Shown here: in pieces, positions 4,264 to 45,299 of the stretch
Numbering within the stretch: the first letter of the stretch is position 1
Layout: each line of letters starts with the position of its first letter
Assembly: GCA_003487265.1 (NCBI GenBank)
Contig: DNEP01000013.1
Span: forward strand, 230,706 to 294,705
Direction of reading: 5' to 3'
Origin: Minisyncoccota bacterium
GTDB lineage: Bacteria > Patescibacteriota > Microgenomatia > UBA1400 > UBA12028
DNA length: 64,000 nt
Position numbers and translations under genes: made by a program
Notes under the pieces: generated by a model
What the model was told of the DNA's origin: nothing
Database searches by the model: none
The model's input: only the letters and a program-made list of their open reading frames with translations

Positions 4264-6213
4264 TTATTCTGCGATCTCGCCTTCTTCAACAGGTCCATCG
4301 GTTTTTTTGGAAGACTGATCTTCTGTTTTTTCTGAAGACGATGTCGTGTCCGATGCATTTTCGGTTTTTGCCTGAGCATCTGCTCCTGCTTGCCCCGCTT
4401 TCGCCTGTGCTTCTTGAGCCTGACGCATCACTTCTCCGATTTTTTGAGCCGATTGATACGTCGATTCAATCGCTTTTTCAAGATCTTCTTTTGAAGACTC
4501 TGGTTTTTCTGCGAGTTCGCGCAATTTTTGCACGTTTTCTTCAATGGATTTTTTATCATTCTCATTGAGTTTGTCACCGTATTCCTTCAACTGCTTTTCG
4601 ATCTCGAACGCAACGCCTGTTGCTTTGTTTCGCGTCTCCACTGTTTCTTTTTTGATTTTATCTTCCGCAGCGAATTTTTCTGCTTCAGCCTTCATTCGCT
4701 CAACTTCCTCTTCGGAAATATTTGTGGAGTTTTGAATCGTGATCTTTTGTTCTTTCCCCGTCGTTTTTTCTTTTGCCGAGACGTGGAGAATTCCGTTTGA
4801 ATCGATATCAAATGTCACATCGACTTGAGGAATACCGCGTTGCGCGGGGGGAATACCGTCGAGAATAAATCGGCCGAGCGACTTGTTATCCGCCGCCATT
4901 TCGCGCTCACCTTGAAGCACGTTGATCTCCACCGAGGTTTGGTTATCCGCAGCAGTCGAGAAAACTTGCGATTTGCTGGTAGGAACGGTTGTGTTTCGCT
5001 GAATAAGAGCGGTGCGCACACCTCCAAGCGTTTCAAGTCCAAGCGTGAGTGGAGTAACATCTAGCAACACCACATCTTTCACATCGCCCGTAATCACACC
5101 CGCTTGAACTGCGGCTCCAACCGCCACCACTTCGTCGGGATTTACCCCCTTATGAGGTTCTTTCCCAAAGAATGCTTTCACGCGTTCTTGCACTTTCGGC
5201 ATACGCGTCATTCCGCCAACCAACACAACTTCGGAAATTTCCGATGCTTTGACTTTGGCATCGTCAAGCGCTTTTTGGACAGGAACAAACGTTTTTTCAA
5301 TCAGAGCATCGACAAGCTCCTCCAACTTTGATCGAGTAAGCGTCATTGTTAAATGGAGTGGCCCATTTGGTCCCTGCGCGATAAATGGCTGATTGATCTC
5401 TGTTTGCTGTGCAGAAGAAAGTTCAATCTTCGCTTTTTCGGCGGTGTCACGAATGCGCTGCAACGCCTGAGGGTCGGATTTTAAGTCGACACCGTTCTCT
5501 TTTTTAAACTCGGATGCGATGTAATCAATAATAACCGCATCAAAATCGTCCCCTCCTAAGAAGGTGTCTCCATTGGTAGACTTCACTTCGAACACTCCAC
5601 CACCAATCTCCAAGATCGAGATGTCAAACGTGCCTCCACCCAAATCGTAGACCGCGATCACACCTGACTCTTTTTTATCTAAACCGTACGCAAGCGCGGC
5701 AGCGGTGGGTTCATTCAAAATACGTTCCACTTTCAAACCAGCGATCTCTCCCGCTTGTTTGGTTGCCTGCCGTTGCGCATCATCAAAGTACGCAGGAACA
5801 GTAATCACCGCTGAATCAACTGTTTCTCCCAAATATGCTTCTGCATCTGTTTTCGCTTTTGCGAGAATTTTCGCGGAGATTTCTTGTGGCGTGTATTTCT
5901 TTTTGTTGATTTCCACCACGGCCATATCGTCTTTGCCTGCAACAATAGTGTACGCAACGCGTTCGATTGTTTTTTTGACTTGAGCATCGCTGATTTTGCG
6001 ACCCATCAATCGCTTCACAGACATCACTGTGTTCTTTGCGTTCAACACAGCCTGTCGTTTCGCGGATGTACCAACCAAGTTTTTAATTGGCTCAACAATC
6101 GAAGGGAAGGTGTTCGCACCTTCTGCGGTTGTAATAACAACGGGCTTTCCCTGCTCCATAACCGCAACTGCTGAGTTTGTTGTTCCTAAATCAATACCAA
6201 TGACCTTTGACAT
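4264..6213 (-). CDS. dnaK: Molecular chaperone DnaK (Hsp70)
   Basis: Canonical Hsp70 signatures ([32 protein letters not shown]) and a strong AGGAGGA RBS. 649 aa. Confidence 0.97.
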
Positions 6214-32510: not shown

Positions 32511-32650
32511 ATTTTTCTCCTGTGTTACGGTGGTTATACGTACGTATTCTTCAATGATAACCTATACTTGATTGACAATGTGTGAAGAAATCTTTTTTCA
32601 GTCATTCGTCAATGTCAAACTCGGATCCTTAGTTTGCACTGTTTCATTTG

Positions 32651-33136
32651 CTAAGTAAACTCAGTAAACCCCATCATGGGTTTTTGAGAATCCACCCATT
32701 TTTCCGCTTTTTCGAAAAGTTCTGGATGCTGTTCTCTTCCTGTTTGGGGATCAAGCGCAACTTCACGAGCATGCTCAATATTACCCGTTTCTATTAGAGA
32801 AGCAATCACATTATGCTCAACCATGCTTCTAAGTTTCATAATTGAAACAGAAATTCCAGTTCTATCACTTAACAAAACAGTTGCTTCTAATCTTTCAGCT
32901 TCAAATCGATGACCGAAGAACGATTCGATTGCCGCATTTGTCATGCTTTCACTCAACTGAAAACTTCGATGATTTAGTGCTTCTGCTACTAGTTTTTCCC
33001 GTTCTCGTTTCTCTTTTTCTTCTGGGGAAAGCGTTTCCCACTCTCTCTTTTCAGCTATACGTCTTGCTTGAATGGCTGTATTTATTTTCTCCATGTCGAA
33101 CACGGGTCTTTGCCCATTGTTTTCCATTTTATTCAT
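32651..33136 (-). CDS. Hypothetical protein
   Basis: ATG at 33136 is preceded by a perfect GGAAAGGAGGTGA RBS. Glu/Lys-rich soluble protein with no recognized motif. Confidence 0.5.
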   Translation of the reverse strand: MNKMENNGQRPVFDMEKINTAIQARRIAEKREWETLSPEEKEKREREKLVAEALNHRSFQLSESMTNAAIESFFGHRFEAERLEATVLLSDRTGISVSIMKLRSMVEHNVIASLIETGNIEHAREVALDPQTGREQHPELFEKAEKWVDSQKPMMGFTEFT

Positions 33137-33243
33137 TTTTATCACCTCCTTTCCAAAAAACCCTCGCACCCATCTATTCAAAGAAGAATAGACAAGGGCG
33201 AGGGTTCTACAACACACGCGGTACCACCTTGTTTTTCATTTAG

Positions 33244-33278
33244 TACAAAAAAGGCATTCCTGTTTCCTTGGAATGCCT
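33244..33278 (-). terminator. Rho-independent terminator (9-bp perfect stem AGGCATTCC/GGAATGCCT + U7 on the minus strand)
   Basis: Plus-strand sequence aaaaaAGGCATTCCtgtttccttGGAATGCCT. On the minus strand the hairpin is followed by TTTTTTT. Confidence 0.6.
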
Positions 33279-33495
33279 CGAAATTTTTGCAATAAATGCT
33301 CATTTTCGAGTGCTCCGACAGTGCCGACACACTCTTTCAGCTGTCACGGGCATACCCGTAAACCTTAATTGATGTGTATCTTTAGGGTTTAGGCTCAAGA
33401 GGGTAATTCAAACATGATCGTTCGGGAAGACTTGCACCTACCGCTTCCTCTCTCTTGTCACCGATACTGCTCTACTATTTCTCTGTCAAAGCTTG
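33245..33495 (-). ncRNA. Candidate small RNA (about 250 nt) with its own promoter and terminator
   Basis: Minus-strand TTGCGA-N16-TATAAT promoter at about 33496-33523, no ORF longer than 17 codons, internal hairpins (CGGGTATGCCCG), ending at the strong terminator at 33244-33278. Confidence 0.3.
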
Positions 33496-33628
33496 TCGGA
33501 GTATTATACGCGAAAGAAGAGATATCGCAATATGCAAGTTTGTTACTCAATTGTGAACCAATTTTGTCCTTGGTAAAAATCGTACGCCCACCATATTCAT
33601 ACTTGCTCGATTAGTCTATTATTAACTC

Positions 33629-34817: not shown

Positions 34818-35102
34818 TCATCCTGCACTGACTCCATTTGGAACGTCTTTTTCGGGCATTGTAAGAACAGGGGTAATTCCATTTGTATATCCAATATCAA
34901 ACAGCATCCCTTCAGAAACTTCCCCCGCCATCTTTCTTGGTTCGAGGTTCACAACAAATAATGCTTGCTTTCCAACGATTTCGCTACAATCTTGACGTTC
35001 TTTCTTCATTCCAACAAGAATCGTGCGTCGAAATGTGCCGAAATCAACCATAAGTCGAATGAGTTTATCTGAACCAGAAATATCATCAATTTGCTCACTT
35101 GG
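34818..35102 (-). pseudogene. N-terminally truncated paralog of the tRNA-binding-domain protein (CsaA/Trbp111-like)
   Basis: In-frame translation upstream of the ATG at 35051 continues the domain (PSEQIDDISGSDKLIRLMVDFG...) up to a TAA stop at 35103-35105. No start codon covers the first beta-strand. It is homologous to the intact copy at 14479-14874. Confidence 0.45.
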
Positions 35103-37365: not shown

Positions 37366-37490
37366 ATGCCTAACATCTTTCTATTAGATGTAAGGATTAT
37401 AATAACTATTCCTTACATCTGTCAAGTGGATGTTAGGTTTGGACTTTATGTCAGTTTGTGTAATTTAGTGGTTGTTTCGGTTAGTTACTG

Positions 37491-37562
37491 CTCCCCGACG
37501 TGGATTCGAACCACGAACCATCTCGTTAACAGCGAGCCGCGCTACCGTTGCGCCATCGGGGA
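37491..37562 (-). tRNA. tRNA-Asn (anticodon GUU), 72 nt, CCA not encoded
   Basis: Hand-folded cloverleaf. Acceptor TCCCCGA/TCGGGGA, D-arm GCGC-AACGGTA-GCGC, anticodon loop CU-GUU-AA, T-arm CGTGG-TTCGAAT-CCACG. Confidence 0.8.
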
Positions 37563-45203: not shown

Positions 45204-45228
45204 GCGAATATATGTTGCTGTCTTTTTG

Positions 45229-45299
45229 CTGCGGGACAGGGACTCGAACCCCAATTCTCGCGTCCAGAGCGCGATGTCCTACCCTTAGACGATCCCGCA
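45229..45299 (-). tRNA. tRNA-Gln (anticodon CUG), 71 nt
   Basis: Hand-folded. Acceptor TGCGGGA/TCCCGCA, D-arm GTCT-AAGGGTA-GGAC, anticodon stem TCGCG/CGCGA with loop CU-CUG-GA, T-loop TTCGAGT. The T-stem has two G-U pairs. Confidence 0.7.

Follow-up and report, generated by a model that had tools for sequence, protein, structure and literature searches.

The region described here lies on the minus strand of a 64,000-nucleotide stretch of DNA (the window), in a gap of 492 bp (33137-33628) between two flanking genes. The original prediction, which put this non-coding gap at 410 bp, saw in it an independent sRNA of about 250 nt that was unmatched to any known family and ended at a strong terminator, and offered a cis-acting leader as the alternative. 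We find in the gap a promoter-like sequence, the structural elements of a T-box leader, an intrinsic terminator and a ribosome-binding site, followed by the gene for an orphan protein (Table 1). The host is a Microgenomates/Pacebacteria bacterium of the Candidate Phyla Radiation (CPR).

Table 1. Features of the leader region in the window and of related loci (L-numbers), with the basis of each assignment.
Feature	Position	Strand	Basis or remark
-35 box TTGCGA	33525..33530	-	promoter scan
-10 box TATAAT	33503..33508	-	promoter scan; equivalent -10 box before all homologous leaders
Stem I: GA/K-turn motif (UUUGAC ... UGA), AGUA S-turn, AG bulge, distal loop	33393..33492	-	Rfam alignment
AG bulge AGAGAG	33455-33450	-	aligns to RF00230 consensus
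Distal loop GGUGCAA (tRNA elbow platform)	33438-33432	-	aligns to RF00230 consensus
Specifier bulge GAAUUACC	33402..33409	-	Rfam alignment; 8 nt
Specifier codon UAC (Tyr)	33405-33403	-	TBDB rule; invariance in 9 leaders
Stem II, AAACC/GGUUU	33359..33391	-	Rfam alignment
Stem IIA/B element CGGGUAUGCCCGUGA	33344..33358	-	Rfam alignment
Subfamily-specific hairpin GAGUG-UGU-CGG...CGG-AGC-ACUC	33308..33334	-	covariation, 9 sequences
Long Stem III (CAUUUA / UGCAAAAA / apical 9-bp helix)	33237..33298	-	-24 kcal/mol fold
Apical Stem III hairpin and T6 run ("terminator" of the original prediction)	33247..33278	-	stem and U-run conserved in 9 leaders
T-box sequence AAGGUGGUACCGCG, 14 nt	33217..33230	-	sequence and Rfam alignment
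UGGU bulge, predicted to pair with tRNA 3' end ACCA	33226-33223	-	sequence
Antiterminator: helices AAGG/CCUU and GCG/CGC around 7-nt bulge	33194..33230	-	-10.5 kcal/mol
Intrinsic terminator GAACCCUCGCCC...GGGUGCGAGGGUU and U-run	33155..33207	-	-29.9 kcal/mol
Ribosome-binding site AAGGAGGUGA	33142..33151	-	sequence; kept in L001
Regulated gene, 161-aa orphan protein, ATG at 33136	32651..33136	-	all-helical; tyrS-linked family
tRNA-Tyr(GUA) genes	L013 335-418; L020/L021 5008-5090; L022 980-1064		13-20 nt past terminator in L013, L020
~300-aa family genes	L013 420-1319; L020 5102-6004; L022 1074-1955; L014 4435-5319; L024 665-1579		

The promoter had been correctly placed on the minus strand, but it occupies 33530..33503, 7 nt away from the 33496-33523 given originally. 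With 10 of 12 matches, TTGCGA-N16-TATAAT is the best of five promoter-like sites in 1.8 kb; such sites are no more frequent than in shuffled sequences (5 found, 4.1 +/- 1.8 expected), so that the match by itself proves little. That the region holds no open reading frame longer than 17 codons is true for ATG starts, but TTG or GTG starts mechanically yield frames of 30-50 aa, which are broken by 1-nt indels in a homologous leader.

Rfam places the region in the T-box leader family RF00230. The match covers the full model (positions 1-219) from 33498 to 33191 on the minus strand and scores 87.8 bits, with an E-value of 1.1e-19 in a local scan and 1.1e-17 when searched over the whole 64-kb window. 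Together with a fold z-score of -5.35, the latter value indicates a structured RNA at this locus far beyond chance. The window copy falls about 5 bits short of the Rfam gathering score for RF00230 (93 bits), and a scan of the window at that threshold returned three tRNAs only; the T-box surfaced with E-value thresholds. We attribute the shortfall to an insertion of about 90 nt between Stem IIA/B and the T-box sequence. Among the homologous leaders, L001/L012 (94.1 bits) and L025/L026 (97 bits) exceed the gathering score, followed by L017 (92.8 bits), L020/L021 (92), L022 (91.5) and L018/L019 (84.4). The 5' part of the L013 leader is cut by the contig end (57 bits), and L023 has an ultrashort Stem I (47 bits). 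An Rfam assignment had been named beforehand as the outcome that speaks against an sRNA, and this is the outcome obtained, with homologs above the gathering score. The alternative of a cis-acting leader proved correct: the RNA is an RF00230 leader that runs into the mRNA.

The architecture of the leader largely agrees with this assignment. RNAalifold of six leaders gives a Stem I of 24 pairs, 9 of which carry compensatory changes on both sides, and leaves the specifier bulge unpaired. The Stem II hairpin and that of IIA/B, a putative pseudoknot element, both align to the RF00230 model. The S-turn motif of Stem II is degenerate in the window allele (AAUUA versus AAGUA in L001), and the CGGG-NNNN-CCCGURA signature of Stem IIA/B is kept in all leaders.

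Between Stem IIA/B and Stem III, the subfamily carries an extra hairpin whose conserved core combines a G.A mismatch with an invariant U-G pair. As MAFFT aligned the full-length leaders unreliably in Stem III and the terminator, covariation was tested one module at a time. For the extra hairpin, 95.6% of cells are paired across nine sequences, against 70.9% in shuffles; 7 of its 10 pairs have changed on both sides, and none of 500 shuffles reaches its covariation score. When the 3' partner is shifted by 1-3 columns, pairing falls to 26-50%. A clade-restricted extra helix on an otherwise canonical T-box has a counterpart in stem Sa of staphylococcal glyS (PMC9177973). Stem Sa belongs to the terminator/antiterminator domain, whereas the hairpin described here, with a U-G / G.A core of its own, is part of the linker that joins IIA/B to Stem III.

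At the 3' end, antiterminator and terminator are mutually exclusive, with the strand CCCUCGCCCUU common to both, and the terminator is the stronger of the two (-29.9 versus -10.5 kcal/mol). A weak antiterminator combined with a strong terminator is the usual arrangement in T-boxes.

We consider it very probable that the region is an mRNA 5' leader that acts as a transcription-attenuating T-box riboswitch specific for tRNA-Tyr. Family membership, architecture, covariation, the constancy of UAC and the association in the genome with tRNA-Tyr and tyrosyl-tRNA synthetase (TyrRS) all back this assignment. It makes the element a further example of a known riboswitch class and not a new sRNA. The original prediction is thus partly supported: a promoter-driven, structured, non-coding RNA had been correctly seen, and its main reading as an sRNA is unsupported.

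Stem III and its terminator-like tip

The supposed sRNA terminator is the apical part of a long Stem III. Its perfect 9-bp stem (AGGCAUUCC/GGAAUGCCU) was confirmed at 33278-33270 / 33260-33252 on the minus strand; it closes a 9-nt loop and has a folding energy of -13.2 kcal/mol. Our terminator scan omitted this hairpin because the loop exceeds 8 nt. The U7 tail ascribed to it is shorter: of the six T at 33252-33247, the first still forms the last stem pair, and U5 remains after the 9-bp stem. Stem III stands directly upstream of the T-box sequence, and the sequence on either side of it, AUGAG ... AA, agrees at 4 of 5 positions with the RRRNG-Stem III-AA motif quoted in PMC7778990. The apical helix shows compensatory changes in L017 and L025; for instance, AGGC.../...GCCU in the window is UAGC.../...GCUA in L017.

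A GC-rich tip followed by U5-U7 is kept in all nine leaders. The window has an A-run upstream of the U-run, and the two can base-pair within the long -24 kcal/mol hairpin. In L018 the strand opposite the U-run is not A-rich, yet the U-run is still present, and in the L013/L020/L022/L023 group three A stand opposite seven U. Since the U-run is kept even without an A-run partner, it seems to be selected for more than pairing. The tip with its U-run is probably a hairpin-dependent pause site or a leaky terminator; lying upstream of the antiterminator, it might cut many transcripts short ahead of the T-box decision.

According to the literature, RNA polymerase may pause at the Stem III of T-boxes, which would leave the tRNA time for docking (PMC6197855 and PMC5570125, which both cite Grundy & Henkin 2004; PMC13001445). 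As in B. subtilis glyQS (PMC5570125, PMC6197855, PMC13001445), the hairpin described here sits just upstream of the antiterminator, where it is proposed to hold the polymerase during tRNA docking. The pause of glyQS, at position 138, is located in the Stem III loop and involves no U-run, whereas the putative pause of the window would involve the conserved U5-U7 after a GC-rich tip, as in hairpin-dependent pauses or intrinsic terminators.

These features bear directly on the reading as a free-standing sRNA of about 250 nt, extending from the promoter to the Stem III hairpin and its U-run, produced either alone or as a by-product of the leader that binds tRNA-Tyr in trans. The resemblance of the GC-rich 9-bp hairpin and U-run to an intrinsic terminator favors it, as does the conservation of both in 9 of 9 leaders, including L018 and the L013/L020/L022/L023 group, whose U-run is longer than pairing needs. 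We nevertheless regard this reading as unlikely. Directly past the 3' boundary at 33244 follow the T-box sequence, the antiterminator, the true terminator and the ribosome-binding site, all as conserved as the upstream part; that boundary splits the element, and the RNA continues to the real terminator (33207-33155) and into the mRNA. The U-run of the window is also able to pair with the A-run within Stem III, T-box Stem III has a proposed role as a pause site (PMC6197855, PMC5570125), and an efficient terminator at this position would render the downstream switch pointless.

It is also unlikely that three propositions hold jointly, namely that the leaders form a T-box subfamily of CPR's own, that they control a tyrosine regulon including a new family of TyrRS/tRNA-Tyr partners, and that Stem III is a first terminator releasing a trans-acting RNA. 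If this were true, the subfamily would be marked by the extra linker hairpin and the terminator-like Stem III, the tRNA-Tyr gene would belong to the regulon of some lineages and the ligand would be autoregulated there, and the released Stem I-III RNA of about 250 nt would bind tRNA-Tyr in trans, which would make the element both a riboswitch and a source of an sRNA.

Specifier codon and predicted mechanism

For the tyrosine T-box that we favor, the amino acid is read from the specifier loop, in which an S-turn (AGUA / GAA) is formed by AAAUAGUA / GAAUUACC. According to the TBDB rule, the specifier consists of bases 2-4 of the specifier bulge, counted from its 3' end (PMC7778990); applied to GAAUUACC, this yields UAC in the '+0' frame. 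Across the leaders the bulge occurs as GAAUUACC, GAAAUACU, GAAAUACA or a loop ..UUUACA, and UAC is its sole invariant triplet in nine leaders, both adjoining bases being variable. A purine directly 3' of the specifier is frequent in T-boxes and not absolute. The window has C at this position, as do L001, L017 and L018; L013, L020 and L022 have U, and only L025 and L023 have A.

UGGU is present in all leaders, and a discriminator A is therefore predicted for the tRNA. The tRNA-Tyr co-encoded in related operons has the anticodon GUA and the discriminator A, matching UAC and UGGU, respectively. Within the 64-kb window we found no tRNA-Tyr gene and, by tblastn, no match to TyrRS, so we infer the match of the specifier to the host's own tRNA. 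The three tRNA genes of the window, all on the minus strand (Ser-GGA, Asn-GTT and Gln-CTG at 1840-1926, 37490-37562 and 45228-45299), include no ligand of this T-box.

Specificity for another amino acid, either Leu (UUA, frame -1) or Thr (ACC, frame +1), is very improbable. It draws on the specifier bulge having 8 nt and not the minimal 7, which makes GAA-UUA-CC a possible reading, on the +1 frame being a Thr codon in all leaders (ACC/ACU/ACA), and on UGGU, since the discriminator A73 that it implies cannot tell Leu from Tyr in bacterial tRNA identity. Against it, the -1 frame differs in meaning among leaders (UUA for Leu versus AUA for Ile), the +1 frame would demand three different tRNA-Thr isoacceptors, and UAC is invariant in leaders whose operons encode tRNA-Tyr(GUA) and TyrRS and never Leu or Thr functions.

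From the tyrosine specifier and the elements downstream of it, we infer a mechanism of tRNA-dependent antitermination. Transcription would begin at about 33497/33496, some 7 nt past the TATAAT box. Stem I would offer the specifier UAC to the anticodon GUA of tRNA-Tyr, with the platform formed by the distal AG bulge and GGUGCAA holding the tRNA elbow, and the tip of Stem III with its U-run would most likely pause RNA polymerase, or occasionally stop it, shortly ahead of the decision point. A bound tRNA-Tyr that is uncharged is predicted to pair through its free ACCA end with UGGU in the T-box bulge and thus stabilize the weak antiterminator, so that the polymerase would read into the 161-aa gene. 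With charged tRNA, the much stronger terminator would form and transcription would end at about 33155.

The closest known system is the B. subtilis tyrS leader, the founding T-box. The two share the tyrosine class of RF00230 with a UAC specifier for tRNA-Tyr(GUA), a Stem I with K-turn, AG bulge and distal loop, Stems II, IIA/B and III, a 14-nt T-box with a UGGN bulge, and the competition between antiterminator and terminator, with attenuation (here predicted) as the output. Unlike its B. subtilis counterpart, the window element belongs to a CPR host and not a Firmicute, controls an orphan protein and not tyrS, and represents a subfamily with an extra covarying hairpin between IIA/B and Stem III, a very long Stem III with a terminator-like tip and U-run and, in most members, a specifier followed by a pyrimidine. 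An early survey reported T-boxes in Firmicutes (over 95% of hits), Actinobacteria, Chloroflexi, Deinococcus-Thermus and two delta-proteobacteria (PMC2494555). Our literature search of 8 million full texts for T-boxes together with CPR, Patescibacteria, Microgenomates or Saccharibacteria found no paper linking them. The leaders described here would extend T-box riboswitches to the CPR and give a candidate sRNA that had no annotation a definite identity as a regulatory element whose predicted ligand is tRNA-Tyr.

Related leaders and tyrS operons

We fetched ten distinct genomic contexts of the orphan family, and an RF00230 match lies directly upstream of the operon in eight of them. Nine of the related loci (L002-L008, L010 and L011) are 100% identical to the window, and the contig of L016 begins too near the gene to reveal a leader. 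In L009, positions 1-335 carry an L001-type leader joined to a window-type coding sequence, as an assembly chimera or a recombinant; given these mixed alleles, the nearest relatives supply only two leader alleles.

The comparison of the window with L001 is informative about selection. Their leaders are 89.7% identical, against 47% for the DNA upstream of the promoter and 72.8% for the coding sequence (dS ~1.0, dN/dS ~0.22), which indicates that leader and protein are both under purifying selection. This argues against a decaying, non-functional T-box relic left behind after the orphan gene parted from tyrS: the leader is kept across lineages whose synonymous sites are near saturation, substitutions in its helices are compensatory, and core motifs, promoter and ribosome-binding site are intact. 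The score below the Rfam gathering threshold, a tyrS without a T-box in two genomes labelled Pacebacteria and a target that is not a classical T-box gene would fit a relic, which we nevertheless hold to be highly improbable. The tyrS genes of these two genomes have an upstream gap of only ~150 nt and no T-box in it, and it seems to be the orphan gene, not tyrS, that the Tyr T-box accompanies in the Pacebacteria lineage.

In other lineages, the T-box leader is linked in the genome to genes for TyrRS and tRNA-Tyr. The orphan family adjoins tyrS in 6 of the 10 distinct genomic contexts, among them L014, which has no T-box: a TyrRS gene (PF00579 and S4) comes just after the orphan-family gene in L013, L014, L020, L022 and L023 and one gene further on in L018. 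In L013, L020/L021 and L022, a tRNA-Tyr gene is located between the T-box terminator and the first ORF; that of L013 has the anticodon GUA and the discriminator A. Because this gene lies downstream of the terminator, the T-box would control the gene of its own ligand, an arrangement of interest to riboswitch specialists. We know of no described precedent for it.

Several related loci deviate from this layout. In the L023 T-box (4389-4582), the ultrashort Stem I is a simple hairpin that carries UAC in its loop, AACUUUACA, and is reminiscent of actinobacterial ileS T-boxes; the terminator of this T-box is followed at ~4625-4700 by a tRNA-like remnant (T-arm GGUUCGAAUCC and acceptor strand) that ARAGORN did not call. 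In L014/L015 and L024, a different leader and no T-box was found upstream of the ~300-aa/205-aa-family operon; tyrS is next in L014/L015, and the L024 contig ends before that point. The leaders of L014 (4079-4435) and L024 (300-665) combine two hairpin-U7 elements with a conserved ORF of ~27 codons (MKIKQKHWKHYSYRT...) and with a pairing, GGGGGGAUU/AAUCCCCC, that resembles an antiterminator. They may represent a different attenuator in place of the T-box.

The ~300-aa proteins constitute a second orphan family, co-operonic with the small helical protein and tyrS. By eye this family resembles a degenerate class I aminoacyl-tRNA synthetase (a TyrRS/TrpRS paralog), a reading that gained no support: there was no Pfam match, no match by phmmer against PDB and a probability of 0.3% in hhalign against TyrRS. 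In two lineages, the gene after the orphan gene is of the Asp/Glu-racemase family (L001 1770-2459; L012 1248-1985; L018 5794-6471); that of L018 is flanked by the orphan gene and tyrS. This neighborhood hints that amino-acid racemization could be part of the tyrosine regulon.

The regulated protein and its surroundings

The 161-aa target had no match in Pfam, NCBIfam or PDB and none by fold, and it is not a recognized aminoacyl-tRNA synthetase, biosynthesis or transport gene. A word-indexed search found 2 clusters of its family and a profile search 17 (5.8 billion proteins); an exhaustive HMMER search of 1.84 billion cluster representatives recovered 14 family proteins. All are confined to CPR-like metagenomic contigs. 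An identical protein is recorded from a 'Microgenomates group bacterium' (two MAGs), the 90%-identity cluster of the target includes a 'Candidatus Pacebacteria bacterium' member, and the contigs come from groundwater metagenomes. Named relatives of the operon-linked TyrRS all belong to Patescibacteria, Saccharimonadia, Woesebacteria or Pacebacteria. The TyrRS apparently from L013 (P0036, 400 aa) is 72% identical to that of the L020/L021 operon. Given this kinship and the matching operon layout, the label 'uncultured Pseudomonadales bacterium' on L013 (CAYILC010000049.1) is probably wrong.

Because its family sits inside T-box(Tyr) tRNA-Tyr/tyrS operons in other CPR bacteria, the orphan protein is predicted to act when tyrosyl-tRNA is scarce. 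Induction by uncharged tRNA-Tyr, as predicted, and the tRNA-Tyr/tyrS operons elsewhere provide the first functional clue for this CPR family. Since CPR bacteria are believed to rely on hosts for their amino acids, a regulon for tyrosine starvation would offer a handle on how they sense supply. The 'aaRS-related hypothetical' genes under T-box control in Firmicutes are comparable in that specifier codon and aaRS linkage are the only clue to their function (PMC2494555, Table 2); the orphan family differs from them in being another protein family, restricted to CPR-like contigs.

Two further observations concern the neighborhood in the window, both on the minus strand. At 34818-35051, 1.7 kb from the T-box and beside a DUF1653 gene, lies a gene for a stand-alone 77-aa tRNA_bind (PF01588) protein. 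Besides an imperfect inverted repeat (TTGACATTGAC ... ATTGTCAATCAA), the 140-nt spacer between the orphan gene and a Thioredoxin_3/ArsP_1 permease pair (32511-32650) includes a promoter-like box, TTGACA, and has no obvious terminator.
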